From Nemertoderma westbladi (lineage: Eukaryota; Animalia; Xenacoelomorpha), in the NCBI GenBank assembly GCA_032718475.1, contig JAUCBJ010008300.1:60541-124540 (forward strand): a DNA stretch of 64,000 bases. Reading direction: 5' to 3'. Under the pieces are notes generated by a model that worked only from the letters and a program-made list of their open reading frames with translations, made no database searches and was not told the DNA's origin. This document shows, piece by piece, positions 37,801-57,200 of the stretch; within the stretch, counting starts at the first letter, position 1, and each line of letters begins with the position of its first letter. A program made the translations under genes and the position numbers.

Positions 37801-38946
37801 GATTTTTTACAAAAAACGACATCGATTTTCATATTCATGACTTCTAACCCACTCCAAGAGATAGACAATCTTAAATGAAAGTCAAAAGAGCAGGTAACAC
37901 TTACATTTATAGAAGCAATCAGCTGTTCTTTGCTTCGTCTTTCCCCTGGAGATGGATGAATTTTGATTGCGTCGGAACACCCCCTTTTTGAGGCTCTCAG
38001 AGTGAAGATATAAGTAGCCTATCTCCCTGTTAATATTGTTGTGTTCTAGAATATTTAATATAGTTTCATCGTATTGCAAAAGCGGCTGGAGCCGAAGATA
38101 ATATGTGATACAATAATTCACCTCAAATTTCTCAGCTATTTCATGAATATAATGAGTATTAAAGCCATGTCAAAATCCTTGGTGTTTTTCAGCAATAATT
38201 TATTAAAATCTCCTCTGATTTTTTACAAAAAACGACATCGACTTTCATATTCATGACTTCTAACCCACTCCAAGAGATAGACAATCTTAAATGGAAGTCA
38301 AAAGAGCAGGTAACACTTACATTTATAGAAGTAATCAGCTGTTCTTTGCTTCGTCTTTCCCCTGGAGATGGATGCATTTTGATTGTGTCAGAACACCCCC
38401 TTTTTGAGGCTCTCAGAGTGAAGAGATAAGTAGCATATCTCCCTGTTAATATTGTTGTGTTCTAGAATATTAATTATAGTTTCATAGTGTTGCCAAAGCG
38501 GCTGGAGCCAAAGATAATATGTAATGCAATAATTCACCTCAAATATCTCAGCTAGTTCTTGAATATAATGAGTATTAAATCCTTGTCAAAATCCTTGGTG
38601 TTTTTCAGCAATAATTTATTAAAATCTCCTCTGATTTTTTACAAAAAACGACATCGATTTTCATATTCATGACTTCTAACCCACTCCAAGAGATAGACAA
38701 TCTTAAATGAAAGTCAAAAGAGCAGGTAACACTTACATTTATAGAAGTAATCAGCTGTTCTTTGCTTCGTCTTTCCCCTGGAGATGGATGAATTTGATTG
38801 CGTCGGAACACCCCCTTTTTGAGGCTCTCAGAGTGAAGATATAAGAAGCCTATCTCCCTGTTAATATTGTTGTGTTCTAGAATATTTAATATAGTTTCAT
38901 CGTATTGCCAAAGCGGCTGTAGCCGAAGTTAATATGTGATACAATA
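31842..38946 (-). repeat. ~416-bp satellite array, inverted block, left of the LTR element
   Basis: Reverse complement of the same monomer; the MPKRLEP..-type spurious ORFs switch to the + strand. A local 2076-bp period is visible (36529 vs 38605). Confidence 0.98.
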
Positions 38947-40865
38947 TAAATTGGAGAGATACGCCTATTCCTACTATCGGAAGAGACGGTAACAATACCT
39001 GCAATATCCTACTGTAAAGTTTGTAAATCAAATCATAAATCCGACCTTCTCACCAAAACAGTAAACCCTAAGTAAGCGAATATATTGCAGTATCGATCTC
39101 TTTTAACCGGTGAGGCAGAAAACAGTCTACGAGCAGACAAACTTCGATAAAACAAAATCCCGCGCAGCGAATCCTAAAATCAGGCTGACTCACTGACGGA
39201 CTAAGGGGCTCGTATACTTTGCCGCGGTGTGATTTATATGGTTGGGCAAAGGGACGCTAGCTAGGTATAGAGCAGATTTGGAGATGTCTAACTAGCGAGC
39301 AAAGTGCAGTAAGGACGAAAGTTAATTTTATATATTTTGAGGTGTAAATAATTTCTAACGCGCGTGTGTTAATTCTGAACGGTCAAAGCAGTTTTGCTCC
39401 TTCACATATATAATTACTGGGTACGGTGTGCATTTTACGAATATTCTAATTTTGTAACTTGTAGGTCCAATACTCACGAATGATAAGGTCCCTTCCCCTC
39501 TTGCGTATTTCCAGGACTCAAATTCAGGCATAAGGTTAATACTACGCCCAGAATTCGGCAATTTTAGGTACCAGGTCCCTGATACTAAGAAGAGATGTGT
39601 TAGTTTACTACTGTAGGCGTACGGGTACTAATAGCTATCCTGGCTCCTATCTAGAATTTTAGTCACCCAGGTAGTCCGGGTAACTTCCTATTAGGGCGTT
39701 GGCGGGGACACGGTAGATGTTAGTATATCCCTGATAGCCTCAATTTATTTTGCGCCTAGCGTAAACTGCCCTACCGCCTGAACGGTACAATCCCAATTCA
39801 GGTGAAAACACAGCAACCCCCTAGCCTACAAGTTCTGATGTAATAGACACGGTCGTACTGCAAATAGTCGCACACACACCTGTACTTAGCAAGAGTTAAG
39901 CGTACAGTTTGCTGCACCCTAACCAATGTGTATGCCTTGTACCGGTGTGCCTACGTCCTATCTGCGTACTAGTATCTGCTCTCTCTCCCTCTCCCCCGTA
40001 GGAATATGAAGGTCTACTGCGGTTTTTCCCTGAATCAAGACAGTACAGTCCCTATGATGTAATTTTGGGCTCACAGCGTGTCACTACGTCTACCTTTGAT
40101 CTTTTGGTCTTACACTTAGGTAGCAAGGATCGAACGCTGTCTAACCTTTCAGGCGATGGGCGAATAACACTAGATGGTATTGCGGGTTGTCTCTCGTCTA
40201 CATTCCCGTGATGTTCCCGTTCATTGCTGCGGCCCGATCTCTAGCTGGCCATCTTGTCCCTGAGTTTGTTCACCGTAGTGAAACCATATTAAAACAGATA
40301 GAAAGGCTGAGAGATGTGACTAGTATTTCTGACTTTATTATAAAACATATAATAACTATTATACAATAAACAATGTAATCTGAAATAAGACAGAAAGTGA
40401 ATGATGGAAATTGAGTAGTGATTGATAACTAATGAACGCACCTTTATATACTAAATTTGTGCCGCAATCAATCGAGAAAATTCTCGATTGTTCTATGGGT
40501 TCTAACAAGGTTTTAAAGATAGCTTATTGGTCCAGCTAATACTGTATATAACTTGCACGACATTGGTTACAATCAAATAACTACAGCCTTATTGGTACAG
40601 ACAAATGCAATTAATTTGTAGCGGTTAATTTAAATTAGTTGAAATTCTGCACAAAAAATAATTCGCACTTACTAGGATTCGAACTCGATACCTACTACAC
40701 TTATAATTTCCAACGCTCTACCAACTGAGCTACTGAACCACCTGACCGATAGATGCATAATAGATAGAACCAATACGAATGAGAACTCAAAGCAATCTTT
40801 ACAAAGTTAATTCGAATAAAATAAAATTTTGAAAATCCACGGCATTTAGGGAATATAATTCTATA
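38947..40865 (-). repeat. 3' LTR (1919 bp)
   Basis: Direct repeat of 52361-54279, running TAAATTGGAG..AATTCTATA on the + strand. The right boundary is ambiguous by a few nt. Confidence 0.93.
40653..40739 (-). promoter_or_regulatory. tRNA-derived Pol III cassette (A box, B box, T6) in the 3' LTR
   Basis: The minus strand reads GGTTCAG-TAGCTCAGTTGGTAGAGC..GAGTTCGAATCC..TTTTTT. The D-arm and T-loop are tRNA-like, but the acceptor stem does not pair. Confidence 0.75.
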
Positions 40866-40873
40866 CCGCTCCA
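40866..40873 (-). other. Candidate short, weak polypurine tract
   Basis: Minus-strand TGGAGCGG immediately precedes the 3' LTR. Confidence 0.35.
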
Positions 40874-41039
40874 TGAAAACAGGATATTATCGTGCATAAA
40901 ATATACGGTTTTCACCAATAATCAATCAAACTATAGAATACTTAGGGCGTACTTACATATTTACAATTAAGTTTCAAACAATACTTCCTTTCTACGTAAT
41001 GATTCGATACAAAATAATTACAAATTCAAACTTTACGTA

Positions 41040-41680
41040 TTTAAGGCTTTACTAAGTAAGTACAATATAAATCTAAATTAAATTCACCAATATAAATCTA
41101 TTGCATCTCAGATATTGCATAAATTCAAACAATTACAAATACAAATAAATGAAAACAATAAGAAAGGCTCGCAAGTCTTCCATCTACTATTGTATCTCAA
41201 ATATTGCATAAATTCAAGTAATTACAAATACTTTCGTACCTAAATGTAGATTGCATAAGTTTTGGAATAATTACAAATATGAGTCTTTCTGAGCACAAAT
41301 TTTTCTGTCTATAAAACTTTCTCTTTAGGTACAAATACTACTTATAAAATATAAATTGCATAATATTCGGAACAATACAAATTGCATAAGTTTGGAATAA
41401 TATAAGTTGTATAAGTTCGGAATAATTACAAATATAAAATATAAATTCTTACTAAATATAAATCTTACTAACTATAAGTCTTTACTTAAATATAAATATA
41501 AACTGCATAAGTTTAGAATAATATAAACCTTTGCATCTCAAATATGAAACATAAATCTTTCAAATATAAGTTCCTTCTAAATATAAACTTTCTAAATTTC
41601 ATAAATTCGGAACAATACAAATTGCATAAGTTTTTTAAATATAAAACATATAATTCAAATAAATCACAAATCATAAGAAA
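41040..41680. repeat. Very AT-rich degenerate repeats in the element's 3' untranslated region
   Basis: Repeated ttgcataa(a/g)tt..aattacaaata motifs. Confidence 0.7.
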
Positions 41681-41716
41681 GGCCCACGAGTCTTCCGTCC
41701 ACCCTTGCCCTCCCCT

Positions 41717-43153
41717 TTATCGCTTAGTTGATCGAGCCCTGCCGCGTCCTCGAAAACTGCGCACAGGTGACTTTGCTCGCGATATGGGACTAATGGGGCG
41801 AGTCACTGGTTTACTTGGGACGTTGAGAGACGGTGCAACTATTTCCTCGCAAATTCGTCTGTTTGGCATCCCGAAACCTCGACCAATTCCTCGTGACCGA
41901 TCAGTTGTCGCTACAGTTGGTAGAACGTCTGGGAACGCGTGAGAAGCGGACGACGCAGACCCAAGAGTAGCTTGCGCCCCCTGTTGATCAGCTGGTGTAT
42001 GTCCCGATCCTCCTACTGGTTCTCTTGGAAGTGATACCGTATCCCGAGTAACTCGAATAGTCGGCTCAACTCCCTTGCGTTCTTCTACATTAATAATTTT
42101 CTTCAATTGTTGGCCCACCTTCTGGACCCGTATGATCCTACCCTGCCCGTCCTCCCGAGGGTGACGTGCAGACGGCGCAACCGGAGTGGCTGATATATTC
42201 GTCGCCTCTAGGACCTCTTCTTCCTCGAATACGCTCGCTCGTATACGTTTATGGTAAAACGCGGCTCGGTACGCCCATGCGACGGTTAACCAAGCTCCTT
42301 TGTTCCGCTTTTCAGTTCGGAAACGATCAAATTCACCATACGTGATACGATTTACGACTTTCTGAAAATTCCACGTGTTCTTGTTATCTGGGTGAATCTG
42401 TAACAGATACTCGCGCACCACTCGGAATCCGCTGTCGTGGGGCAAAATATCGACAACCTCGATAAGTTCGTCATATTGAGGCATAGCGGAGATGTATCCT
42501 TCCGACATCATCGTTTGAGGATTCACCGCCCAAAATCCAAGATGCGCTCTCATCGGAAACCGTCTTCTTTGTGCTGATACATGTTCGTCGGCTAAATCTT
42601 CCCACTCATCAAATAACTTCCTCACGAGTTTTACAGATTCGTGTTCATAAGGTATGTCTCTTAGTTGGCATTCAGATGCTCGATGTCCCTTTATATTGCA
42701 GTAAGTACACTGAGCCATAAATCTCCAGCAAGTATAAAAGGTATGAGACCCTTGATCCCCACACCATCCACAGATTAGCTGAGTCGTAGTAATGTGCTTT
42801 CCACTGCACTTTGCCATATGATGTCCAGCGACGCCACATTTACTACACATCGTATTAGCAGGGTACCACACTCGTTCGTATATAAGATCTCCAATCGGTC
42901 GAGCGCTTCCTCCCACACTATAATCGTAATCATCTGGGTCTATGGGTTGGTAGGTTTCTGAAGGTTGTATGCAAACTATAGCATCTGTTGCTTCAAGTTG
43001 TCGAATCTCCGTCTGAGATTTCTTCGGGAGGTTCCTTTCTATCTCAAGAAGTTCCTCTAAAGGATCGTCGGCGATCGTAGTAGTTACGTTGAAATCATCA
43101 CCGAGGTGACCGATAGGCGCGCGCGTCTGCCGTGATTCATCCGTAATCTCCAC
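41717..43153 (-). CDS. Accessory protein with three CCHC zinc knuckles and a basic RG-containing tail (478 aa)
   Basis: Knuckles CSKCGVAGHHMAKC, CGWCGDQGSHTFYTC and CTYCNIKGHRASEC; C-terminus RSFRGRGRARSTKR. The listed start is GTG and the frame is open from ~43204, so the true start is uncertain. Confidence 0.8.
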   Translation of the reverse strand: MEITDESRQTRAPIGHLGDDFNVTTTIADDPLEELLEIERNLPKKSQTEIRQLEATDAIVCIQPSETYQPIDPDDYDYSVGGSARPIGDLIYERVWYPANTMCSKCGVAGHHMAKCSGKHITTTQLICGWCGDQGSHTFYTCWRFMAQCTYCNIKGHRASECQLRDIPYEHESVKLVRKLFDEWEDLADEHVSAQRRRFPMRAHLGFWAVNPQTMMSEGYISAMPQYDELIEVVDILPHDSGFRVVREYLLQIHPDNKNTWNFQKVVNRITYGEFDRFRTEKRNKGAWLTVAWAYRAAFYHKRIRASVFEEEEVLEATNISATPVAPSARHPREDGQGRIIRVQKVGQQLKKIINVEERKGVEPTIRVTRDTVSLPREPVGGSGHTPADQQGAQATLGSASSASHAFPDVLPTVATTDRSRGIGRGFGMPNRRICEEIVAPSLNVPSKPVTRPISPISRAKSPVRSFRGRGRARSTKR

Positions 43154-44139
43154 GATACGTTTTGAGCAAAGTTTATGCTCTCGAAAACTTCCGGTGTCAT
43201 CTCCTTAGCTGAAGTTTGATCGTGTGACGTCCAATGGCAAGGTAGGCTCGCGAGTCTTCCACCCCATTCTTCCATCTCACCTTTCTCGAAAGCCTTGTAG
43301 GCTCTGTATAGGCTAAGAGCTTCTTTCTTTTCGCGGGTTGACTGATTCGCCTCGTCCAGCGTAAGTTCAAATACATCGGGTTCAACAACCTTAGGTGGGT
43401 AAATGACAGTTTCTCCCGCCTTTGGTCCGGTCATAGCAAATGAATGATATGGATTCGATAAAGGATACCCTCCTTCCTGGTAGCGTAGTTGTTGATGATT
43501 CGAACACCTCGCCAATATCGGTTCGGGATTTTCCTTATTCAAACGCATCGGAATCGCATTTCGTTGTTCGCGCATACAAGAACCGCATTGATAATAAAGT
43601 TTATAAACTGAAAATGCTTCCTTGGTTTCTCTATCGTCCCCTCGAGTTCGTCTGTAAAGATGCATTCCATCGAATTCATCGCGTACCGCAGGCATAGGTT
43701 CATGCGCCTTCAGGTATTGCATGGTATGATACAAACGACTAATTTCAGTATCGGGGTCTTCGCTAATGTCTCCCGTGTCACACAAGGCATCGTACGGGTA
43801 AAGTTCGTTGAAGGTTTGGCGCAAACTTTCGATTCTTTCGTTCAATGCGTTTTGCCTTCTCTTTAATACGTTCGAGTCATATTTAGTTCTCGCGAGTTTC
43901 GCTGTACTTTCCGATAATTCTTTTATACCAAATATAGTGTAATCCTTGGCTCCAAATCTTTCGAATGGCGCTGCTGCCTCCTCTTGGATATCATATCCCC
44001 ATCTCGGCTCTCCTTGTATCCCTTTCTCCATAATTAGGGGTGTAGTTACATAATCATTACTACTAGAGGGAATACAACAGAGTTTGTGGTTAGTTGTGAG
44101 GAGACGTGAGAGTTTCGTCTGCCTTTTGGGCTTCGACAA
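43084..44139 (-). CDS. Accessory ORF of unknown function (351 aa; first ATG at 44031)
   Basis: Long open frame with protein-like composition, a coiled-coil-like segment and a CGSC..CSNH possible metal site. It overlaps the next ORF. Confidence 0.65.
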   Translation of the reverse strand: MSKPKRQTKLSRLLTTNHKLCCIPSSSNDYVTTPLIMEKGIQGEPRWGYDIQEEAAAPFERFGAKDYTIFGIKELSESTAKLARTKYDSNVLKRRQNALNERIESLRQTFNELYPYDALCDTGDISEDPDTEISRLYHTMQYLKAHEPMPAVRDEFDGMHLYRRTRGDDRETKEAFSVYKLYYQCGSCMREQRNAIPMRLNKENPEPILARCSNHQQLRYQEGGYPLSNPYHSFAMTGPKAGETVIYPPKVVEPDVFELTLDEANQSTREKKEALSLYRAYKAFEKGEMEEWGGRLASLPCHWTSHDQTSAKEMTPEVFESINFAQNVSWRLRMNHGRRARLSVTSVMIST

Positions 44140-44690
44140 CGCTCTAACCTCCTACCCATAGCCTAAGATCTAAGGTTTCTTTAATGACACGCTGCTTCTT
44201 ATCTAAAATATTTTGCCGAAGTAAAACGAATTTGGGCTAAACTGGCCGTGAGTCTAAAATACTCACTTTTTGATCCCAAACTATTATCAGAAAATAAGCA
44301 GTCAAGAATTAGTAATAAATATAGGGGAGTCTATTTTGTCGTAACTTATTGAAACAAGACCGTGTAAAATTTAATTAAAATTTTAAGAAAGGCTCGCAAG
44401 TCTTCCTCTCTTGTTTCTCTAATTTTAAGTTCCACCCGACTGTACCCTGAAATCTATTCACTGGAGAAAATTTTAAAAATTTTTCAAATCCAAATGGATT
44501 GTCTAAAATTTCGAAAATGTCTCAATATTGTGAGTTCCAAGTAGAATTCCATTTCTTATACCTACAAATCCCGCTCCTATGTGACACATAAGGGTACTAC
44601 CCTCAATGTTCACATATAAAGACAATGGAATTCTACCGCTGTCCTTACTACGGTGTACAGGTACGTGGAAATCTATTTGTAAACTCCTAA

Positions 44691-47600
44691 TTATTTACTA
44701 GTATTAGGTGGAGATTTGTAGTCTCCAGACTCGTTACGAGTCTCTTCAAGAAGTACGAGACGTTGAGTCGGTCTGTCTACTGTGCGACCGTCAATTGTCC
44801 GTACCGTCACAGTTCTTGTCACTCCATCCATAGATGGATGTGTGGCTAAAATGACACCTGTTATCCAGAAGCGTCTTTTCAGATTCACTTCTGCCAACAG
44901 CACGTGATCTCCCGGCTTTAATGCGCGGGTGTTATTGTACCAGTTTGTTCTGGCAGAAATAGAGGGCAAATAATGGTTTTGCCATATTTCCCAGAATTTG
45001 TTAGCCAGTAGTTGCGTGATTTTCCACGCTTTTTTCCCGTAACTATCGCTTTCCATTGGAATGGAAATCGGCGTTAATGTCGTCGGTGCCTGCATAAGCA
45101 GGTGTGCCGGTGTTAAAGCAAACTGGGATTGTTTGTCATCGGGTACTAATACTATTGGTCTAGTATTTAGTATTGCCTCGATTTCAACAAAAAATGTTGT
45201 CAGTTGGTCGTCTGTTAATATGTGGTTTACTGGAATGACCTTTGCCATTGCTGTCTTTATAGATCTAATCAGTCTCTCCCAGACTCCGCCTCTCCAAGGA
45301 CTATCTGGAGGATTAAACTTCCAAACAATCTTGTGAGGTTGCAGTTCGTTCGAGATTTGATCATGATCTAATCTCTTAAAGGCTCTAGCAATCTCATTCC
45401 GAGCACCAACAAAGTTTGTCCCTTGGTCTGAGTACAAGCATTTTACTAGTCCGCGTCTAGCGATAAATCGCCGCAGTGCTAGTATAAACGCGTTGGTGGA
45501 AAGATCCATCACACGTTCAATGTGAACTGCCCTACTGGACATACATGTGAAAATCAGTCCCCAGCGTTTTACTAGTATACGTCCACGTTTAGTATGTATG
45601 GGACCAAAGCAATCAATTCCAGTCTCTGTAAAAGGTGGTCTGAATGCTTGAAGTCGTGCTTGTGGTAGTTCACTCATTTCTTGGGTACCTATTCTAGAAT
45701 GTACCTTTTTACAAATAATACACGTACGTGTCACTGAACTTAACGCTTTACTGGGTCTAATTAATACAAATCTAGTACGTAAGTAGGAAAGACAGTGGTG
45801 TCTTCCAGCGTGTTTCAGATGTAAATGTGCGTCCAGTATCATTGCACGTTGTAGTTCGTGATGTTGCGGTATTATTATTGGGTACCTAAAGTTCGTGTTA
45901 AAGTCAATGTTTTGAAGCCGAGATTTATGACAAATTAAGCCATTATAAATAATCGGACTCCAACTCAGTATCGGTGACGACTTGATTGGTTGACCTTGAT
46001 TTATAGATGTGAATTCGCGCGCGAAATATCGCAGTTGGTAATGGCGAATTAATTTAATCTCACACCTGTCAATCTCAGCCAATGTAAGTCGACGTGTAAA
46101 GTCACGTTTGCCTTTAACGTATTGTACAAAACGTACAATCCACGCTAATTTTCGGCAAGCGTTTGACCAAGAGTCTGTTAAGTTTACAATACGGTCGACA
46201 TAAGTATTTGTGACGTCATCAGGTAAGTCAATTGGGAATTTGGAAGGTTTTAAATTACTAGAAGGGCCCACGGGTCCGCCGGCAAGTATTCCCTTGTTGA
46301 CTGTTGATCCGTCCGGGTCTACAAGTAATTTGTCCTTCTTTGTCTTCTTACCTTGATTGTCAGTACTTTGTAAGTCGATCGTTAATGGTGGTTTGAACTC
46401 TATGGGATCAGTGGGTTTCGCTAAACTTATTTTTCTGCCGACATTAATCCCAGGTCTCGCCATAGGTTGCAGGTTCGGTATGTCTCTTGAGCGCAAAGTA
46501 ACACCTGTATTTACATTAGCGTAGGTACTACCCACATCTGTAATACATGAGGTTTCACCGTGCTTATGGTTGCTCAAGTGTGTCAAAATTGGTAGTTTGT
46601 CAATACAAGGCCGCTCCAATAGGGAAACTGCGGCTTTATTGTTAGTCAATACATTACTAGTGTCTAGTCGACTGTCTAGTAGTGTGTCTGGCGATACGTC
46701 TGGTAACGTATCTGGTTGTTTGTCAATAGAAGGCCGCTCCAATAGGGAAACTGCGGCTTTACTGTTTGTCAGTGCGTTACTAACGTCTGGTGGAACATTT
46801 TGTGACATGTCTGTCAAAACGTCTGGTTGACCGTCTAGTAACGTGTCTGGTTGACCGTCTGGCGATATGTCTGGTGTAGAAAGGCTCGCAAGTCTTCCTC
46901 TCTTGACCTTTGAAGTTATATCCTTCCATTTCGCCTTCGGTTTTTTCTTGAGTTTTGCCGCCGTTGTCTTTTTCTTTGTCTCGACGGGCACTGTTGAGGT
47001 TGTTGGGGTAGGTAGACTCGCAAGCCTATCATCTGTCGTCGATGGAGTCTCTAGCTGACTCGTCTTCTCCCCAAGTTCTAAACTCCGCTGGTGGGTTAGC
47101 TGCTCCTTGTGACTTATCATACTAGTTACACGTCTGTGATGTTTTGTCGACTGTAGCGTAGTATGGTTCACGTCGTGTGAAAAGGAATGAATTGAGTTTG
47201 TAGTCAATAAACTACATGTACTCTGTACGTCGTCTTCCTCGTCACTTACGTCTAGTGTGCGCACAGGCGCTCGAGTATACCACCCTATCGGCGTTCTGCA
47301 GGCGTATGCGTTTCCTGCTACAACTGCCGATGGTCTGGTTTCCCACACCTGGTGTAGGTTGAATTGGTCCGTCCCGATCAGCATTGCTACCGATCTATAA
47401 TTGACAGGACATTCGGGTACACCAAGGTGTCTGAAATACTTACGGTCCTCCAGAGATTGTTCCGGCACTGGACCTAGTAGGTTACTAAAGTCCTTCGTGG
47501 CCGCAAAGGTTAGATCTCTAAAGGGCAACAAAGACCTCTCCCTCTCGCTGTGTTGCGATTTTGGAAGAAGAGAGTCTAAGTCCAACTTAACTCGTGTCAC

Positions 47601-50600
47601 TGGTATTGCACGCTGGCCGTGCATACTACTTACTGTATAACTTACGTGCTTACCTTGTCTAAGATCTGTTACGACGTCAGCTATCTTTTCATCTACGTAA
47701 CTGTGAGATGAGGCTGAGTCTAGAATCGCGTAAATCCTCTTACTCCCTTTTGTGCCAGTAACTTTAATTGGGATTACACTGAATCCCTTCAGTTGGTCAG
47801 TGGTCAGGAGCGCGATTGACGGTTGTTCGTCTCCATTTGAATATTCGTCGTCTTCTGATTCTTCGTCCGACGATCCGGATTGTTCTGAAAAGCAATCCTC
47901 TATATGGGTCACGAAAGTCGGAGTCGTTTTCGATTCCCGTTTTCGGTAAGCCGCATCACATCTCGCTGCTGCTTCCGGGTGTTCCCTGGCGAAGCGTTTC
48001 GTCGGCGTGTGGCTGTCTGTGTGGAGCAGACCGTCGTGGTTGCGTCCACAGGATGGACAAGTGTCGGTATTTGGGCAATCCTTACGGACGTGTCCGTGTC
48101 GCGTACACCGCCAACAAGAGTCCAGTGGCCGTATCTGCAGCCGTCGTTCTTCTGAGTTCAACTCGCGAAATTGTCGACAACCTCGTAACTTGTGACCAAT
48201 ATACCGCTTACCTAAATGTTCGCAGTATTGGCAGCCGTTGAAGTCGGTGCTGAGTTGCTGTCTCGTCTGTTTCGTCCCAATGGGCGCAGATACTCTATTA
48301 CCGTCTGAGAATTGTCGTGATTCCGTCGGTGTGGCGTAAGTGGCCGTCTTTGTGGATGTTGTCTGGGGTTTTTGTCGGTTAGAGGATGGCAGTGTGATCC
48401 CTTCTGCCACGATGTGCTGGTCGGTATAGTTAGATCGAGTTTCTACTACCGCCTCCCTGGATATTAAAAGGTACACATCTTCTAATTTTAGGAATCCTCC
48501 TCGCTCCTCTCGCTGGTATTCGACCTTCCTCCACTCCCGACGAAGTCGATGGTGGAGTCGTCCTATTATCTTTAATAGGACTGTAGGGGTATTTCCGTAA
48601 TCAAGTTGTCCAATTGATCTTAAGGTAGTGATAGCGTTCTTAATCTCGTCAGCCAGTTTTAGTAAGTCGACGGGTTTAGTGATAGCCCCTCCCTTACAGA
48701 GTTCTTCTATTACTGACCTGGCCATACTCACTGTACCTCCGTATATCGAAGTCAAACGATCGTACGCTAGTTCGAAAGCGTCTGGTACACCGACGAAAGT
48801 CTCCGCCAAACGTTTAGGTTCTCCTGACAACGTTTGGAGCAAGTAATTGAACTTCTCTCGTGATGTAAAGGCGCACACGGCGATCTGGGATTCAATATAG
48901 TCTACGAAGGTATGCCAGTGTTTTGAGCTACCGGAGAACTTCGGTGGTTGTTGTACCGGCAATCCCTGTCTGGCTGCGAATTTCGCTATCTCCTCGGCAA
49001 CGTTCAGAGTTTCGCGTCCTTGGTTGGTAGTCTGGTTGATGTTCTCCCTTCTAGGCGCTTTTCCCTGATACGATGTGGGGTTTGAAGGTACCGGTCTTTG
49101 TGGTCCCTTCGGGTGTCTATTGTGTTCGAATTCGGAATTTCTCGAACTGTCGGTGTAACCTTCCTCCAGACGTTCCTCAATCCGGGCCAACTTGTTGACA
49201 ATGTCGGCGAACTGTTGCGCACCGATCGCGCCCGCTGGTGGTAACGCCTTCTGTGTCGGTGTATTCTGTGGAGGATTATCTGCAAAGGAGTTGTCTGAAC
49301 GCTCGCGTTTATATTCATCGGCCGCCCCTGTTCTAAATACCTCGCGTTTCGGGTAATCCGATTCGCTCGAAGTACTACTATCATCTGGATATGGTGGTCG
49401 ACGTGCTCGCGTTCGTTGCGTCGTACGAGTTCTAACGGCTCGTTTCGGAACATCGTCCACTGATCTCCGTTGTTCGGTAGGCTCACAAGTCTTCCTCGAA
49501 GTCGTAGATTGCGATGTAAACTGGTTGAACGGTCGCGTCTCCACTGTTCTCCGTTGTTCGGTAGGCTCACAAGTCTTCCTCGAAGTCGTAGATTGCGATG
49601 TAAACTGGTTGAACGGTCGCGTCTCCACTGTTCTCCGTTGTTCGGTAGGCTCACAAGTCTTCCTCGAAGTCGTAGATTGCGATGTAAACTGAACCGGTGG
49701 GCGAATGACAGCATTTGAGACAACTGGCCTTGTAGGTCGAAACGTCATTGGGTAAGCGTAATGTGTAACGGGTTTAGGTGTCAAAGGTGGACTCACCTGT
49801 TTTGTCGTCAGTAGCGCAGGTCCGGTCAATAAACTACTACGATCCGTAATCGGTGGGTTACTTACCTTGACTTTCGGAATGGGCGACGACGTTGCTCTTG
49901 GCGGTGTAAACTCGTCCGGAATAACAAACCTGTGGTCCGTCGCACCATGGATAGGAGAAATGTTACTACTACCCGCAATCGAAACAGGTTCCTTAGTCGT
50001 AACCGGTGCAAACATATGAGTTACTTGTGGGAATCGTTGACACACGTCTTTTACTAATTGTCGTTCCCGTCCGGGTGCTCCTACGCTTCCTTCCTTCTTC
50101 CGTTCCTGAATTTGGCGATGTCTTACCTCTAACTGGTCCAAATCATGTCCGTCGCGAGATCTCATCGATCGATCGCGGGCTAGAAGATCCAGATTTTCCT
50201 TAGTTTCGGCTAATTCTCTCGCCCTCTTCTCAAGTTCGAAACGAAGTTTAACTTCCTTTTCTCGTTGTTCCGTTTGTTGTTGTTGCGCCTCGAACTCTGC
50301 TTGTCGTATCGCTTGTTGGGCTTTTATTTGCCGTGTCTTCATCTCGACTCTGGCTTCCGAAACTACTCTTTGTCGCTCTAACTCTGCCGCAGCCGTTTGT
50401 CGCTCTAACTCTGCCGCAGCCGTTTGTCGCTCTAACTCAGCCGCTGCAGCTGCCGCTGCCGTTTGTCGCTCTAACTCGGCCGCTGCCGCTGCCGTTTGTC
50501 GCTCTAACTCGGCTGTTGCCGTTCGTTGCGCTAACTCGGCCGTTGCCGCTTGTTGGGCAATGTCCAACTCTAACCTTTCCATTTCGGCCGCTTCGAGTTC

Positions 50601-51557
50601 GGCTTGTTCCTGCAGATGAGAGATTCTCGCTACATTCGCAACACGTATTTTCTCTTCCTCTACTGCTGTTTGTATCATTAGAAGTTGAGCTTGTTCTTCT
50701 ATCTCGTGTTGCTGTCTGTAGAACTGCTGCTGTTGTCGAGCAACTTCTGACGTGACTATACTTCCTTCGCAGATTTCGCTACGAATACTTACCAATGATT
50801 GATTTAGTATTCCCGGTGCCGATTCGATTTGTGCGAATGAAGTTTCCCTCGTGTATTCCGGCACGGTTTCCAAATCGCCGACGTCTTCGCCGCACATGCG
50901 TAAGTGGTCCGTCAGATGTTTCAATTGTCCATCCAGTCGGTACAATTCCTGTTCTTCCTCGGGTTGTAATAATTCGTCCGAAACTGACTCACCTAACAAC
51001 TGGTCCGCTTGTTCCTGTTGTATCTGTCTAATCGTCGACTTAAACTGAATCAGTTTCTCTCTAGTGATCATTAGTTTCTCGAGGATTCTAAGTTGAGTAT
51101 CCATGTCCTGTCTCTGTCTAGCTAGATCTTGTAGGCCAACTAGATTATCTACGGACTTATATACTTTACTCTGTACTCTAACCTGGAGGGTGTAGAACTC
51201 GAATCGAGACATCGGAGCGGTCAACCCGTCTAATATGCGTTGGCCTTCTCCAATACTCCTGGTTATATGCGCCATGTATCCACCGACGCTTCTAACCACA
51301 CTTTCTGTGCTTCCTGCTGAACTTACCAATTCCGTTTCCCTATATCTAGGTTGCGGAACAGTTAGAAAGTCCTCGGTCCTGCCGTCGCCTCGTACTACGG
51401 CATCCGGTACTCCCGTTGGATGTACTGGTGACGCACACGGTGTAGGTTCGGTAGGCTCGCGAGTCTTCCCCTGTGGTTCTTCCGCCGCTGACTTATCCGC
51501 GTCACATGAGTCATAGTCGGTTTGTGTATTCTTCGTATAGTCTTGTTTGTCACTCAT
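44691..51557 (-). CDS. BEL/Pao Gag-protease-integrase polyprotein without RT or RNase H (2288 aa)
   Basis: In order: coiled-coil N-terminus; DUF1759-like Gag (PPKFSGSSKHWHTF..LSGEPKRL); three BEL-type Cys/His knuckles (CQYC..H..C, CWRCTRHGHVRKDC, CPSCGRNHDGLLH); aspartic protease AILDSASSHSYV; integrase HHCC (HLHLKH..CIIC); DDE core (GIDCFGP, SDQGTNF, GGVWERLI); DUF5641-like tail (NKFWEIWQNHYL). No YxDD motif seen between protease and integrase. Confidence 0.95.
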   Translation of the reverse strand: MSDKQDYTKNTQTDYDSCDADKSAAEEPQGKTREPTEPTPCASPVHPTGVPDAVVRGDGRTEDFLTVPQPRYRETELVSSAGSTESVVRSVGGYMAHITRSIGEGQRILDGLTAPMSRFEFYTLQVRVQSKVYKSVDNLVGLQDLARQRQDMDTQLRILEKLMITREKLIQFKSTIRQIQQEQADQLLGESVSDELLQPEEEQELYRLDGQLKHLTDHLRMCGEDVGDLETVPEYTRETSFAQIESAPGILNQSLVSIRSEICEGSIVTSEVARQQQQFYRQQHEIEEQAQLLMIQTAVEEEKIRVANVARISHLQEQAELEAAEMERLELDIAQQAATAELAQRTATAELERQTAAAAAELERQTAAAAAAAELERQTAAAELERQTAAAELERQRVVSEARVEMKTRQIKAQQAIRQAEFEAQQQQTEQREKEVKLRFELEKRARELAETKENLDLLARDRSMRSRDGHDLDQLEVRHRQIQERKKEGSVGAPGRERQLVKDVCQRFPQVTHMFAPVTTKEPVSIAGSSNISPIHGATDHRFVIPDEFTPPRATSSPIPKVKVSNPPITDRSSLLTGPALLTTKQVSPPLTPKPVTHYAYPMTFRPTRPVVSNAVIRPPVQFTSQSTTSRKTCEPTEQRRTVETRPFNQFTSQSTTSRKTCEPTEQRRTVETRPFNQFTSQSTTSRKTCEPTEQRRSVDDVPKRAVRTRTTQRTRARRPPYPDDSSTSSESDYPKREVFRTGAADEYKRERSDNSFADNPPQNTPTQKALPPAGAIGAQQFADIVNKLARIEERLEEGYTDSSRNSEFEHNRHPKGPQRPVPSNPTSYQGKAPRRENINQTTNQGRETLNVAEEIAKFAARQGLPVQQPPKFSGSSKHWHTFVDYIESQIAVCAFTSREKFNYLLQTLSGEPKRLAETFVGVPDAFELAYDRLTSIYGGTVSMARSVIEELCKGGAITKPVDLLKLADEIKNAITTLRSIGQLDYGNTPTVLLKIIGRLHHRLRREWRKVEYQREERGGFLKLEDVYLLISREAVVETRSNYTDQHIVAEGITLPSSNRQKPQTTSTKTATYATPTESRQFSDGNRVSAPIGTKQTRQQLSTDFNGCQYCEHLGKRYIGHKLRGCRQFRELNSEERRLQIRPLDSCWRCTRHGHVRKDCPNTDTCPSCGRNHDGLLHTDSHTPTKRFAREHPEAAARCDAAYRKRESKTTPTFVTHIEDCFSEQSGSSDEESEDDEYSNGDEQPSIALLTTDQLKGFSVIPIKVTGTKGSKRIYAILDSASSHSYVDEKIADVVTDLRQGKHVSYTVSSMHGQRAIPVTRVKLDLDSLLPKSQHSERERSLLPFRDLTFAATKDFSNLLGPVPEQSLEDRKYFRHLGVPECPVNYRSVAMLIGTDQFNLHQVWETRPSAVVAGNAYACRTPIGWYTRAPVRTLDVSDEEDDVQSTCSLLTTNSIHSFSHDVNHTTLQSTKHHRRVTSMISHKEQLTHQRSLELGEKTSQLETPSTTDDRLASLPTPTTSTVPVETKKKTTAAKLKKKPKAKWKDITSKVKRGRLASLSTPDISPDGQPDTLLDGQPDVLTDMSQNVPPDVSNALTNSKAAVSLLERPSIDKQPDTLPDVSPDTLLDSRLDTSNVLTNNKAAVSLLERPCIDKLPILTHLSNHKHGETSCITDVGSTYANVNTGVTLRSRDIPNLQPMARPGINVGRKISLAKPTDPIEFKPPLTIDLQSTDNQGKKTKKDKLLVDPDGSTVNKGILAGGPVGPSSNLKPSKFPIDLPDDVTNTYVDRIVNLTDSWSNACRKLAWIVRFVQYVKGKRDFTRRLTLAEIDRCEIKLIRHYQLRYFAREFTSINQGQPIKSSPILSWSPIIYNGLICHKSRLQNIDFNTNFRYPIIIPQHHELQRAMILDAHLHLKHAGRHHCLSYLRTRFVLIRPSKALSSVTRTCIICKKVHSRIGTQEMSELPQARLQAFRPPFTETGIDCFGPIHTKRGRILVKRWGLIFTCMSSRAVHIERVMDLSTNAFILALRRFIARRGLVKCLYSDQGTNFVGARNEIARAFKRLDHDQISNELQPHKIVWKFNPPDSPWRGGVWERLIRSIKTAMAKVIPVNHILTDDQLTTFFVEIEAILNTRPIVLVPDDKQSQFALTPAHLLMQAPTTLTPISIPMESDSYGKKAWKITQLLANKFWEIWQNHYLPSISARTNWYNNTRALKPGDHVLLAEVNLKRRFWITGVILATHPSMDGVTRTVTVRTIDGRTVDRPTQRLVLLEETRNESGDYKSPPNTSK
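49460..49692 (-). repeat. In-frame 84-bp tandem repeat x3 within gag
   Basis: QFTSQSTTSRKTCEPTEQRR is repeated three times. Confidence 0.95.
50368..50550 (-). repeat. In-frame 27-36-bp tandem repeat (AAAELERQT) within the gag coiled coil
   Basis: The motif tttgtcgctctaactc recurs about 6 times. Confidence 0.92.
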
Positions 51558-51641
51558 TTCGGTAGTTGTAAGTCAAGTGAAGTGAGTGTAAAAGTATCGA
51601 GTTTACCGTATTTGTATAAAACGGTACTAATTACAGTCATA

Positions 51642-51763
51642 TAAAATTAGCCTACCGGCCGATTTTATAGCAGATGGATAAAATTAGCCTAAACGGCCAA
51701 TTTTACAGCAAATAAATGTCACGGAATAAGTATATAATAAAATTAGCCTAGCGGCCAATTTTA
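51642..51763 (-). other. Three tandem stem-loops in the 5' leader
   Basis: Copies at 51642-51667, 51679-51705 and 51738-51763. The minus strand reads UAAAAUUGGCC-loop-GGCUAAUUUUA. Confidence 0.75.
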
Positions 51764-52349
51764 CAACAAATAAATCGGATAACGATATGCGTTATCAAAA
51801 GGTAAATTAAATACAATAATACGGACTAATTCAGCAATGAACAAAGAAATCATACGGAATGCATAAATACTTGAGACAGTGGAACCCACAATAATTTTAA
51901 CTAATACGGTAATGCCTAACTTATTTATGCAACTTTTCGAACTCACCCACTCCAATAATTCTCCAGAAAAACAGATTCCCAGATACAAACCGAACGTGAA
52001 CCTTTCCGTTTTTAACGTTGCGGACGAAACGCGATTTTCCCAACCAAAGTTGTTGGGTTATCTATCTCCCAAACTTGCTAAACACGGTCTTGCTCCCGTT
52101 ACAGTCTAGAAATGAGTTCTGAATCCTGAAAAACAAAAGAGTTAGGTTTTACTTTACGAAATTTTGTACCGGTACAATATGGTATTTAAACCCTTTTAAA
52201 CACCGGTATTCAATTCCAAAATATTTTACACGCGGTTCAAATCAAATTTTATTTCAAAAAATTAGCACTTAGCTAATCAAATATAAATTTTTACCTCAAA
52301 ATACAAAATTTTCAAATAACTTTAGTCCTACCGAACCGTAGAAGTAAAA

Positions 52350-52360
52350 CATATTCCTAC
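52350..52360 (-). other. Non-tRNA primer-binding-site candidate GTAGGAATATG
   Basis: It abuts the 5' LTR, lacks the TGG start of a tRNA PBS, and is the exact complement of LTR 53412-53422 on the same RNA strand. Confidence 0.7.
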
Positions 52361-54279
52361 TAAATTGGAGAGATACGCCTATTCCTACTATCGGAAGAGA
52401 CGGTAACAATACCTGCAATATCCTACTGTAAAGTTTGTAAATCAAATCATAAATCCGACCTTCTCACCAAAACAGTAAACCCTAAGTAAGCGAATATATT
52501 GCAGTATCGATCTCTTTTAACCGGTGAGGCAGAAAACAGTCTACGAGCAGACAAACTTCGATAAAACAAAATCCCGCGCAGCGAATCCTAAAATCAGGCT
52601 GACTCACTGACGGACTAAGGGGCTCGTATACTTTGCCGCGGTGTGATTTATATGGTTGGGCAAAGGGACGCTAGCTAGGTATAGAGCAGATTTGGAGATG
52701 TCTAACTAGCGAGCAAAGTGCAGTAAGGACGAAAGTTAATTTTATATATTTTGAGGTGTAAATAATTTCTAACGCGCGTGTGTTAATTCTGAACGGTCAA
52801 AGCAGTTTTGCTCCTTCACATATATAATTACTGGGTACGGTGTGCATTTTACGAATATTCTAATTTTGTAACTTGTAGGTCCAATACTCACGAATGATAA
52901 GGTCCCTTCCCCTCTTGCGTATTTCCAGGACTCAAATTCAGGCATAAGGTTAATACTACGCCCAGAATTCGGCAATTTTAGGTACCAGGTCCCTGATACT
53001 AAGAAGAGATGTGTTAGTTTACTACTGTAGGCGTACGGGTACTAATAGCTATCCTGGCTCCTATCTAGAATTTTAGTCACCCAGGTAGTCCGGGTAACTT
53101 CCTATTAGGGCGTTGGCGGGGACACGGTAGATGTTAGTATATCCCTGATAGCCTCAATTTATTTTGCGCCTAGCGTAAACTGCCCTACCGCCTGAACGGT
53201 ACAATCCCAATTCAGGTGAAAACACAGCAACCCCCTAGCCTACAAGTTCTGATGTAATAGACACGGTCGTACTGCAAATAGTCGCACACACACCTGTACT
53301 TAGCAAGAGTTAAGCGTACAGTTTGCTGCACCCTAACCAATGTGTATGCCTTGTACCGGTGTGCCTACGTCCTATCTGCGTACTAGTATCTGCTCTCTCT
53401 CCCTCTCCCCCGTAGGAATATGAAGGTCTACTGCGGTTTTTCCCTGAATCAAGACAGTACAGTCCCTATGATGTAATTTTGGGCTCACAGCGTGTCACTA
53501 CGTCTACCTTTGATCTTTTGGTCTTACACTTAGGTAGCAAGGATCGAACGCTGTCTAACCTTTCAGGCGATGGGCGAATAACACTAGATGGTATTGCGGG
53601 TTGTCTCTCGTCTACATTCCCGTGATGTTCCCGTTCATTGCTGCGGCCCGATCTCTAGCTGGCCATCTTGTCCCTGAGTTTGTTCACCGTAGTGAAACCA
53701 TATTAAAACAGATAGAAAGGCTGAGAGATGTGACTAGTATTTCTGACTTTATTATAAAACATATAATAACTATTATACAATAAACAATGTAATCTGAAAT
53801 AAGACAGAAAGTGAATGATGGAAATTGAGTAGTGATTGATAACTAATGAACGAATCGCACCTTTATATACTAAATTTGTGCCGCAATCAATCGAGAAAAT
53901 TCTCGATTGTTCTATGGGTTCTAACAAGGTTTTAAAGATAGCTTATTGGTCCAGCTAATATATAACTTGCACGACATTGGTTACAATCAAATAACTACAG
54001 CCTTATTGGTACAGACAAATGCAATTAATTTGTAGCGGTTAATTTAAATGAGTTGAAATTCTGCACAAAAAATAATTCGCACTTACTAGGATTCGAACTC
54101 GATACCTACTACACTTATAATTTCCAACGCTCTACCAACTGAGCTACTGAACCACCTGACCGATAGATGCATAATAGATAGAACCAATACGAATGAGAAC
54201 TCAAAGCAATCTTTACAAAGTTAATTCGAATAAAATAAAATTTTGAAAATCCACGGCATTTAGGGAATATAATTCTATA
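52361..54279 (-). repeat. 5' LTR (1919 bp)
   Basis: Direct repeat of 38947-40865, upstream of gag on the minus strand. Confidence 0.93.
54067..54153 (-). promoter_or_regulatory. tRNA-derived Pol III cassette in the 5' LTR
   Basis: Same A box, B box and T6 as 40653-40739. Confidence 0.75.
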
Positions 54280-57200
54280 CAATAATTCACCTCAAATTTC
54301 TCAGCTATTTCATGAATATAATGAGTATTAAAGCCATGTCAAAATCCTTGGGCTTTCAGCAATAATTTATCAAAATATTCTCAGATTTTTTACAAAAAAC
54401 GACATCGATTTTCATATTTATAACTTCTAACCCACTCCACGAGATAGAGAATCTTAAACGAAAGTCATAAGAACAGGTAACACTTACATTTATAGAAGTA
54501 ATCAGCTGTAATTTGCTTCGTCTTTCCCCAGGAGATGGATGAATTTTGATTGCGTCGGAACACCCCCTTTCTGAGGCTCTCAGAGTGAAGATATAAGTAG
54601 CCTATCTCCCTGTTAATATTATTGTGTTCTAGAATATTTAATATAGTTTCGTCGCATTGCCAAAGCGGCTGGAGCCGAACTTAATATGTGATACAATAAT
54701 TCACCTCAAATTTCTCAGCTATTTCATGAATATAATGAGTATTAAAGCCATGTCAAAATCCTTGGTGTTTTTCAGCAATAATTTATTAAAATCTCCTCTG
54801 ATTTTTTACAAAAAACGACATCGATTTTCATATTCATGACTTCTAACCCACTCCAAGATATAGTCAATCTTAAATGGAAGTCAAAAGAGCAGGTAACACT
54901 TACATTTATAGAAGTAATCAGCTGTTCTTGACTTCGTCTTTCCCCTGGAGATGGATGCATTTTGATTGTGTCAGAACACCCCCTTTTTGAGGCTCTCAGA
55001 GTGAAGAGATAAGTAGCATATCTCCCTGTTAATATTGTTGTGTTCTAGAATATTAATTATAGTTTCATCGTGTTGCCAAAGCGGCTGGAGCCAAAGATAA
55101 TATGTAATGCAATAATTTACCTCAAATATCTCAGCTAGTTCATGAATATAATGAGTATTAAATCCTTGTCATAATCCTTGGTGTTTTTCAGCAATAATTT
55201 ATTAAAATCTCCTCTGATTTTTTACAAAAAACGACATCGATTTTCATATTCATGACTTCTAACCCACTCCAAGAGATAGACAATCTTAAATGAAAGTCAA
55301 AAGAGCAGGTAACACTTACATTTATAGAAGCAATCAGCTGTTCTTTGCTTCGTCTTTCCCCTGGAGATGGATGAATTTTGATTGCGTCGGAACACCCCCT
55401 TTTTGAGGCTCTCAGAGTGAAGATATAAGTAGCCTATCTCCCTGTTAATATTGTTGTGTTCTAGAATATTTAATATAGTTTCATCGTATTGCAAAAGTGG
55501 CTGGAGCCGAACTTAATATGTGATACAATAATTCACCTCAAATTTCTCAGCTATTTCATGAATATAATGAGTATTAAAGCCATGTCAAAATCCTTGGTGT
55601 TTTTCAACAATAATTTATTAAAATCTCCTCTGATTTTTTACAAAAAACGACATCGATTTTCATATTCATGACTTCTAACCCACTCCAAGAGATAGACAAT
55701 CTTAAATGGAAGTCAAAAGAGCAGGTAACACTTACATTTATAGAAGTAATCAGCTGTTCTTGACTTCGTCTTTCCCCTGGAGATGGATGCATTTTGATTG
55801 TGTCAGAACACCCCCTTTTTGAGGCTCTCAGAGTGAAGAGATAAGTAGCATATCTCCCTGTTAATATTGTTGTGTTCTAGAATATTAATTATAGTTTCAT
55901 CGTGTTGCCAAAGCGGCTGGAGCCAAAGATAATATGTAATGCATTAATTTACCTCAAATATCTCAGCTAGTTCATGAATATAATGAGTATTAAATCCTTG
56001 TCAAAATCCTTGGTGTTTTTGAGCAATAATTTATTAAAATCTCCTCTGATTTTTTACAAAAAACGACATCGATTTTCATATTCATGACTTCTAACCCACT
56101 CCAAGAGATAGACAATTTTAAATGAAAGTCAAAAGAGCAGGTAACACTTATATTTATAGAAGTAATCAGCTGTTCTTTGCTTCGTCTTTCCCCTGGAGAT
56201 GGATGAATTTGATTGCGTCGGAACACCCCCTTTTTGAGGCTCTCAGAGTGAAGATATAAGTAGCCTATCTCCCTGTTAATATTGTTGTGTTCTAGAATAT
56301 GTATTATAGTTCATCGTATTGCCAAAGCGGCTGGAGCCGAACTTAATATGTGATACAATAATTAACCTCAAATTTCTCAGCTATTTCATGAATATAATGA
56401 GTATTAAAGCCATGTCAAAATCCTTGGTGTTTTTCAGCAATAATTTATTAAAATCTCCTCTGATTTTTTACAAAAAACGACATCGACTTTCATATTCATG
56501 ACTTCTAACCCACTCCAAGAGATAGAGAATCTTAAATGGAAGTCAAAAGAGCAGGTAACACTTACATTTATAGAAGTAATCAGCTGTTCTTTGCTTCGTC
56601 TTTCCCCTGGAGATGGATGCATTTTGATTGTGTCAGAACACCCCCTTTTTGAGGCTCTCAGAGTGAAGAGATAAGTAGCATATCTCCCTGTTAATATTGT
56701 TGTGTTCTAGAATATTAATTATAGTTTCATCGTGTTGCCAAAGCGGCTGGAGCCAAAGATAATATGTAATGCAATAATTCACCTCAAATATCTCAGCTAG
56801 TTCTTGAATATAATGAGTATTAAATCCTTGTCAAAATCCTTGGTGTTTTTCAGCAATAATTTATTAAAATCTCCTCTGATTTTTTACAAAAAACGACATC
56901 GATTTTCATATTCATGACTTCTAACCCACTCCAAGAGATAGACAATCTTAAATGAAAGTCAAAAGAGCAGGTAACACTTACATTTATAGAAGTAATCAGC
57001 TGTTCTTTGCTTCGTCTTTCCCCTGGAGATGGATGAATTTGATTGCGTCGGAACACCCCCTTTTTGAGGCTCTCAGAGTGAAGATATAAGAAGCCTATCT
57101 CCCTGTTAATATTGTTGTGTTCTAGAATATTTAATATAGTTTCATCGTATTGCCAAAGCGGCTGTAGCCGAAGTTAATATGTGATACAATAATTCACCTC

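Follow-up and report, generated by a model that had tools for sequence, protein, structure and literature searches.

Why should a 20-nt near-palindrome recur a dozen times, in coding and untranslated DNA alike, within a single retrotransposon, and in which form would it be read? The question arises from a 64,000-nt stretch of the genome of the xenacoelomorph Nemertoderma westbladi (GenBank assembly GCA_032718475.1, contig JAUCBJ010008300.1, positions 60,541 to 124,540), called the window here and used for all coordinates. On its minus strand lies a Bel/Pao-type long terminal repeat (LTR) retrotransposon of 15.3 kb (38947-54280), in which an initial annotation had recognized ten dispersed copies of an RNA hairpin and suggested multivalent packaging signals or protein-binding sites. 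The best-supported statement that can be made of the motif is that it is a sequence-specific 20-nt quasi-palindrome, kept or copied as nucleic acid, with features specific to one strand and a distribution restricted to the element's transcribed body. Going further, we tentatively propose that it is a multicopy putative protein-binding site on the genomic RNA through which that RNA would be selected or packed, and we assign this proposal a probability of about one in three.

As written on the minus strand, the sense strand of the element, the motif reads GGAAGACTYGYGAGCCTWYC. Scanning the 64-kb window with the pattern GRWAGGCTCRCRAGTCTTCC at up to three mismatches gave 13 matches at 11 distinct sites, because sites 43241 and 51450 are palindromic enough to match on both strands. 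Dinucleotide shuffles yielded 0.02 matches on average and one at most, and none of 100 reached 13. Eight sites fit the pattern exactly (41162, 43241, 44387, 46879, 49476, 49560, 49644 and 51450), 41677 has one mismatch, 43112-43131 has three, and 47011 fits on the opposite strand only, with two. A covariance model built from these 11 sites and run unfiltered over all 64 kb regained every one of them at 31 to 39 bits and added a twelfth candidate copy, GGCGGACCCGTGGGCCCTTC, at 46261-46280 on the minus strand (within a model hit at 46256-46285; 17.6 bits, E 0.014). All ten sites listed initially are thus present, whereas the count of ten fell short by two copies, 43112-43131 and 46261-46280.

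The copies can be followed along the sense strand through the three open reading frames (ORF1 to ORF3) of the element. The first, a class A copy (GGAAGACTCGCGAGCCTACC, 51450-51469), starts 88 nt past the ATG of ORF1. Three further copies belong, as had been noticed before, to consecutive units of an 84-bp tandem repeat: a class A copy with a TGTG loop in unit 1 (49644-49663), followed by those of unit 2 (49560-49579) and unit 3 (49476-49495). The diverged copy at 47011-47030 (GATAGGCTTGCGAGTCTACC on the sense strand) is ambiguous in orientation, being either an inverted class A copy with three changes or a sense copy with four. It is followed by a class B copy (GGAAGACTTGCGAGCCTTTC, 46879-46898) and by the candidate twelfth copy at 46261-46280, in which pairs 4-17 and 8-13 are altered on both sides. 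Between ORF1 and ORF2 lies an untranslated class B copy (44387-44406), separated by 284 nt from the stop of ORF1 upstream and by 356 nt from the first ATG of ORF2 downstream; it has 28 identical nucleotides in common with 46879. Near the end of ORF2 there is a class A copy with a CGCG loop (43241-43260), and the ORF2/ORF3 overlap holds a diverged copy (GGCAGACGCGCGCGCCTATC, 43112-43131) whose loop-closing pair has changed from U-A to G-C. The last two are untranslated: a class B variant 20 nt past the ORF3 stop (GGAAGACTCGTGGGCCTTTC, 41677-41696) and a class B copy (41162-41181) that has a 45-nt repeat on either side and precedes the 3′ LTR by about 300 nt. Except for 47011, all copies are on the minus strand.

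All 12 copies are located between 41162 and 51469, in the internal region of the element, and none lies in the LTRs, the 800-nt 5′ leader, the satellite DNA around the element or the protein stretches matched by known domains. Outside the element, the best hits of the covariance model in the 64-kb window had E values of just 5.7 to 9.2. This supports the motif being specific to the element within the window, although as a control it carries little weight, a single 416-bp satellite making up nearly all of the remaining window. The motif is sequence-specific. Of 13 YGYG loops with at least six of eight flanking pairs on the sense strand, 12 are the motif; a wider class of YGYG hairpins with other stems was not found, the single other hit (43555, sense strand) being unrelated. 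Copies 41162, 44387 and 46879 are identical at 20 of 20 positions in unrelated flanks, and in a self-comparison of the internal region the length shared among copies is just 20 to 28 nt. An exception is the pair 41677 and 41162, which share 45 nt at 82%.

Four copies read GKTREPT (51450) or RKTCEPT (49644) in one frame. Five lie in another frame and read GRLASL (46879, with S following, and 43241, in full GGRLASLP), DRLASL (47011, DRLASLP), GRRARLS (43112) or GGPVGPS (46261), and three (44387, 41677 and 41162) are outside open frames. The use of two frames, together with the presence in untranslated DNA, places the constraint on the nucleic acid, as the initial annotation had argued; the data support a constraint on, or at least a copying of, the nucleic acid and not the peptide. 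In 43112 and 46261 nearly every encoded residue differs while pairing is kept, and the pair-keeping changes are non-synonymous. That a peptide motif RLASL is reused in the proteins, for instance for cleavage or docking, with nucleotide identity being secondary, has therefore almost negligible probability. It would account for 47011 and 43241, both of which encode RLASLP with six codons that differ by three synonymous third-position transitions alone. Yet it is contradicted by frame or position for 7 of the 12 copies, the four in the KTREPT/KTCEPT frame and the three untranslated ones, and 43112 and 46261, which are in the RLASL frame, encode RRARL and GPVGP.

Variation among the copies also has a direction. 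The four central letters on the sense strand are YGYG in 12 of 12 copies, in either orientation of 47011, and occur as CGCG, TGCG, TGTG and CGTG, the same four variants that had been described for the loop of the minus-strand RNA. The differences among the loops comprise at least six separate C/T changes and no G/A change. Both kinds of change would be expected at a symmetric duplex site, or if CpG decayed symmetrically, and we estimate the chance of C/T alone at about 1/32. CpG decay was considered as a source of the loop variation and is not favoured, the internal region having a CpG observed/expected ratio of 1.22 and hence no depletion. The restriction to C/T points to a reader of a single strand, most simply of the genomic RNA, for which the two invariant loop G residues would be important, and it argues against a symmetric double-strand site.

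It is important to note what kind of element carries the motif. A Pfam search of ORF1 residues 1260-1900 for reverse transcriptase and RNase H gave no family at E values up to 10; lacking these enzymes, the element is a non-autonomous derivative. Contigs from three DNA sequencing runs (one organism, three studies) cover it with 19645, 734 and 8007 pieces, contig depth not being equal to copy number, and match the whole element at 80 to 100% identity, which makes it a multicopy family with variants. Between the two LTRs there is one mismatch, plus two 5-base indels that offset each other. The element is young and has multiplied; without a reverse transcriptase of its own, it must somehow get a helper to choose it. 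How helpers choose such non-autonomous elements is, to our knowledge, largely unexplained.

In the scenario that we propose, the twelve near-palindromic copies, placed in the transcribed internal part of this young, multicopy element without reverse transcriptase, would be read on the single-stranded sense genomic RNA. Candidate readers are encoded in the element itself, as ORF1 and ORF3 both contain CCHC knuckles; the reader may be such a zinc-knuckle protein, either the nucleocapsid part of Gag or the ORF3 protein. Retroviral CCHC knuckles favour exposed G residues in loops. The protein, and not the energy of the stem, would hold the fold, with an A·C mismatch in the stem and the two loop G residues as presumed recognition features, and the RNA would thereby be selected and packed into particles that borrow the reverse transcriptase of a helper. 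In its boldest form, which we regard as rather unlikely, the proposal is that a parasite of a helper, itself devoid of reverse transcriptase, carries a 12-copy address label (A·C wobble, YGYG loop) that is read multivalently by its own zinc-knuckle proteins and loads the 13-kb RNA. For LTR retrotransposons of the Bel/Pao group, no packaging code that is both dispersed and multivalent would have been described before.

Several observations weigh against a protein-binding site on genomic RNA, beginning with the predicted fold. In sense RNA, pair 6-15 is an A·C mismatch in 11 of 12 copies (once G·U), and the five class A copies add an A·A mismatch at pair 3-18. Predicted folding energies of the ten canonical copies run from -0.4 kcal/mol in class A to -2.0 kcal/mol in class B, and those of the diverged copies are -2.9 (43112), -3.4 (46261) and -4.2 kcal/mol (47011, the best of all). 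The opposite strand folds better, with -3.9 to -4.9 kcal/mol for canonical copies and -2.5 to -8.3 kcal/mol overall, the lowest value being that of 46261. When folded in context with 120 nt on each side, counting a stem at a mean pair probability of at least 0.25, the sense stem is predicted in just 3 of 12 copies (44387, 47011 and 43241) and the opposite-strand stem in 5 of 12. Standard pairs in the alignment amount to 77 of 96 on the sense strand and 81 of 96 on the other. As judged from these predictions, the sense-RNA hairpin is thermodynamically marginal and poorly supported, and the stable 8-bp hairpin initially assumed for the minus-strand RNA is not borne out.

The evidence from compensatory changes is similarly fragile. 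The loop-closing pair 8-13 is U-A in nine copies and G-C, C-G and U·G once each, the last being the wobble already noted for 41677, and at pair 4-17 a single copy has G-C against A-U in the other 11. When 47011 was read in the sense direction and 46261 was included, covariation scored 0.233 against 0.154 +/- 0.032 in shuffles, of which 5 of 500 were as high; cells changed on both sides numbered 4 against 1.9 expected, with 14 of 500 as high. In a simulation with the four diverged copies, random substitutions, equal in number to the real ones, lost 4.7 to 6.6 pairs whereas the real copies lost none (P 0.001 to 0.02); the range of P is set by the transition bias, the reference copies were chosen by the analyst, and the result depends on reading 47011 in sense orientation. 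If 47011 is taken as inverted, two pairs show one double change each, and 19 to 31 of 500 shuffles reach as high. The covariation thus rests on three or four diverged copies and is not significant without 46261 and 47011; the former came from a structure-aware model, and the latter keeps its pairs trivially if inverted. Moreover, relatedness of the sequences can by itself produce shuffle counts of this order, with no structure behind them. With few sequences and an outcome that turns on such choices, the covariation is suggestive but not significant, and pairing is suggested, not shown.

Genomic copies of the family were also compared. Around 44387 the family is near-invariant: in 120 nt comprising this copy and its flanks a single place varies, loop position 1, and the flanks are no more variable than the motif in this one copy region examined, so that the comparison has no power to detect conservation. 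At that position C replaces T (sense) in 2.4% of the depth in run X1 and in 12% in run X4, once more a C/T difference in line with the strand asymmetry of the loops. Over the whole element the contigs show 791 differences, with C>T and G>A similar (123 and 110 in run X1); they carry no linkage between positions and are hence of no use for covariation. Finally, in the homology between 41696-41652 and 41181-41138 (82%), the motif is kept at 17 of 20 positions and the flank at 20 of 25; no better preserved than its surroundings, the motif here speaks against the proposal.

These observations bear directly on an alternative in which the motif has no function of its own, a short piece having been spread by internal duplications and by reverse transcriptase switching templates at the palindrome, and appearing conserved as the family is young. 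We consider this unlikely, while acknowledging that it is consistent with the great uniformity of the family (one variable place in 120 nt, near-identical LTRs), with the lack of preferential conservation in the 41677/41162 homology, and with the position of copies in local repeats, namely the 84-bp tandem repeat, the 45-nt repeats around 41162 and the 45-nt stretch shared by 41677 and 41162. A tRNA-like fragment in the LTRs would imply that foreign pieces have been picked up before, and the 3′ untranslated part has many rearranged variants. Among the genomic copies we found 57 rearrangement joints; of the 15 listed, eight fall in the 3′ untranslated part at 41195-41673, the most rearranged part of the element. 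Yet these eight deletions lie between copies 41162 and 41677 and spare both, and none of the 15 listed joints connects two motif copies. Against neutral spread there is also the pairing kept in diverged copies and, above all, the fact that at least eight independent positions over 10 kb share just 20 to 28 nt within unrelated flanks. We know of no neutral process that would spread one 20-mer among unrelated flanks in this way. Another possibility, improbable in our view, is that the self-complementary copies are RNA-RNA pairing sites that zip together two genomic RNAs or distant parts of one, in dimer linkage or compaction of the 13-kb RNA. The YGYG centre can pair with itself through G·U on the sense strand, sense homodimers (-8.2 to -23.9 kcal/mol) are far more stable than the hairpins, and 47011 pairs with other copies at -19.9 to -30.0 kcal/mol, the lowest values being those with class A. 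There is a precedent in Ty1, where the self-complementary sequences PAL1 and PAL2 are reported to be essential for RNA dimers (PMC6844567). However, once local structure has to be opened, the net energy is about -11 to +16 kcal/mol and mostly near or above zero, and duplexes between copies and the leader are not unusual when compared with random 30-mers (rank fractions 0.02 to 0.52). Known dimerization palindromes are situated in the 5′ leader, whereas none of the 12 copies is; the first starts at 51469 within ORF1. Pairing of copies with the leader was dismissed accordingly, and an 11-nt leader match near 52330 to the 3′ arm of class A is within chance by our estimate.

Two further explanations retain the palindrome as a binding site or fold and place it on another nucleic acid. 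If the folding strand were the plus strand of the window, as minus-strand complementary DNA or an antisense transcript, the motif could provide pause, priming or binding sites in reverse transcription, or exert antisense control. On this strand the A·C mismatch becomes G·U (G·T in DNA) and the hairpin is stable. The energies (-3.9 to -4.9 versus -0.4 to -2.0 kcal/mol for canonical copies) and the stems predicted in context (5 versus 3 of 12) favour this reading; moreover, the AGAC...GCCT asymmetry holds unchanged in 11 of 12 copies and, with 47011 read as inverted, at every one of the 11 sites that the pattern search gave. We nevertheless deem this distinctly improbable, as the two strands hardly differ in their number of pairs (77 on the sense strand versus 81 of 96), class B copies acquire an A·C mismatch on the plus strand, the loops there read CRCR, which fits no recognised loop class known to us, and no antisense promoter or transcript is known at the element. 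A long shot, in turn, is a double-stranded DNA site for a dimeric protein (a host transcription, insulator or silencing factor, or a protein of the element) with half-sites GRWAGRCT 4 bp apart. Such a site would explain the near-palindromic dyad symmetry and would tolerate an inverted copy, as 47011 possibly is, and the core CTCGCGAG of two copies resembles a known palindromic promoter motif. A symmetric site should, however, vary symmetrically, whereas the centre varies as C/T on one strand only (at least six versus none) and almost all copies show one and the same difference between the two half-sites. A protein-DNA site would give no reason for mirrored, compensatory changes, and the copies are spread through coding sequence over 10 kb and not clustered near the promoter. 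Two other candidates were rejected. An internal polypurine tract came to mind since AAGAGAGGAAGA precedes two copies, but the sequence beside the 3′ LTR is unlike the motif and the palindrome would be left unexplained; for a methylation site, AGACU around the mismatched A fits the DRACH consensus in 10 of 12 copies, but this consensus is too short and common to carry weight.

Returning to the putative protein-binding site on genomic RNA, its carrier deserves a fuller description. The element is bounded by LTRs of 1920 bp at 38947-40866 (3′ LTR) and 52361-54280 (5′ LTR), both on the minus strand and forming a direct repeat pair 13414 bp apart. A 4-bp target duplication, AATA, is present at 38943-38946 and 54281-54284 within the 416-bp satellite, which the element interrupts and whose unit reads through the insertion site. 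On the element strand the LTRs start with GTATAG and end with AATTTA (38947-38952 and 54275-54280) instead of the usual TG...CA, and no obvious primer-binding site (TGG...) or polypurine tract was seen at their borders. An LTR stretch at 40720-40760 (minus strand), found again at about 54134-54174, resembles the 5′ half of a transfer RNA (tRNA) with a D-arm-like TAGCTCAGTTGGTAGAGC and may be a captured fragment. ARAGORN found no tRNA gene in the window, and an origin of the motif from a primer-binding site or tRNA was rejected on this basis.

The 5′ leader extends from 52360 to 51558. Just upstream of ORF1, at 51641-51775 on the minus strand, it contains three direct repeats of 27-40 nt, similar to AATTGGCCGNTAGGCTAATTTTAT. 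The stretch before the first gene is the conventional place for leader signals, and the known cis-acting signals of LTR retroelements are mostly in the 5′ leader. ORF1 (44691-51572, minus strand; 2293 codons open, first ATG at 51557) encodes Gag and integrase domains of the Bel/Pao type. Its order is an N-terminal part with coiled coil and repeats, Gag DUF1759 (E 6e-11), CCHC knuckles, a DSAS protease-like motif read by eye from the translation, about 640 residues without a family, and the integrase, for which Integrase_H2C2 scored 22.1 bits, just below the cut-off of 25.5, and DUF5641 matched at E 1.7e-20. A Pao peptidase domain was not detected in the element with Pfam. The coiled-coil part includes an alanine-rich 27-nt repeat (AELERQTAAA-like; 50357-50577, minus strand). 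The roughly 640 residues without a family (45873-47795, minus strand) occupy the place of the Bel/Pao reverse transcriptase and RNase H, and this region also holds a 123-bp tandem repeat (46590-46827) and three motif copies.

Two open frames follow downstream on the minus strand. ORF2 (43084-44151; 355 codons, first ATG at 44031) has no Pfam family and no homologue in the protein collection. ORF3 (41717-43204; 495 codons) lies in the -1 frame relative to ORF2, with which it overlaps by 121 nt (43084-43204), and has CCHC-type knuckles: zf-CCHC scored 18.1 bits, under the Pfam cut-off of 20.8, and an atlas search gave a weak lead to CCHC/HEXBP-like proteins (score 0.87). The overlap contains no X XXY YYZ slippery heptamer, and a programmed -1 frameshift stimulated by copy 43112 was rejected for this reason. 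The 3′ untranslated part between copies 41162 and 41677 (41195-41673) is AT-rich and built of short internal repeats. Around the element, the 416-bp satellite fills most of the window (2005-38946 and 54277-63998, about 33-34% GC). It occurs in both orientations, turning over near 31.9-33.1 kb together with the sign of the GC skew, and is broken by two other tandem arrays at 12350-13063 and 15276-15849, with periods of 163 bp and 32-118 bp.

The search for relatives of the element and of the motif returned little. A sequencing run with a different organism label (X5) yielded 54 pieces on 38900-54300, most at 95% identity or more, with 0.27 of the sampled words present; its source could be a close relative or a mixed sample. 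In metagenome contigs we found 26 loci with one exact motif match each and none with two copies. These loci, most of them GC-rich, showed no likeness to the element by blastn or tblastn, and the matches were treated as chance. Viral contigs contained no motif match, and no integrase relative was found there. The nearest proteins are Bel/Pao polyproteins of Lepidoptera at 21-22% identity; a search with the Gag region gave just two distant Bel/Pao proteins, and residues 1-700 of ORF1 matched none of the shorter proteins of the collection. Rfam 15, searched over 38900-54300 at E up to 5, gave a sole match to IS102 (22.8 bits against a cut-off of 46, E 3.1), away from the motif copies.

How does the element compare with known systems? 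With Bel/Pao retrotransposons it shares LTRs with a 4-bp target duplication, a DUF1759 Gag and an H2C2-finger integrase with a DUF5641 tail. It differs from them in that reverse transcriptase, RNase H and the Pao peptidase domain were not detected, in having two extra downstream frames, one with CCHC knuckles, and in LTR ends other than TG...CA. The packaging signals of RNA viruses have degenerate stems and just a small loop motif in common, whereas in the element the whole 20-mer is near-invariant and the sense stem is predicted to be weak; the carrier, too, is different, being an LTR retrotransposon of an animal-type family. What the two have in common is the dispersal. For single-stranded RNA viruses, many short stem-loops with a shared recognition feature occur genome-wide, including in coding sequence, and are proposed to bind coat protein multivalently, according to one source (PMC6281560), and the 12 copies of the element with their shared YGYG loop are likewise spread, coding sequence included. 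PAL1 and PAL2 of Ty1 resemble the motif in that they, too, are self-complementary stretches of a genomic RNA made by an LTR retrotransposon, and copies of the motif can pair with each other (-8.2 to -30.0 kcal/mol). However, Ty1 reportedly has two such sequences (PMC6844567), both in the 5′ untranslated region, in contrast to 12 copies over 10 kb, none in the leader, with a modest net pairing energy. A limited literature search, covering sources in part, found no description of a dispersed repeated hairpin in an LTR retrotransposon.

If the motif proves to be a by-product of template switching instead of a binding site, it would mark a hotspot mechanism by which such elements acquire their internal organization. 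If, on the other hand, it is a tag on the genomic RNA, a fixed 20-nt sequence in a dozen copies would give a simple handle on how a helper chooses elements that lack reverse transcriptase. The system would consist of one short RNA and two candidate reader proteins encoded beside the motif, and dispersed packaging signals would be extended from RNA viruses to retrotransposons.

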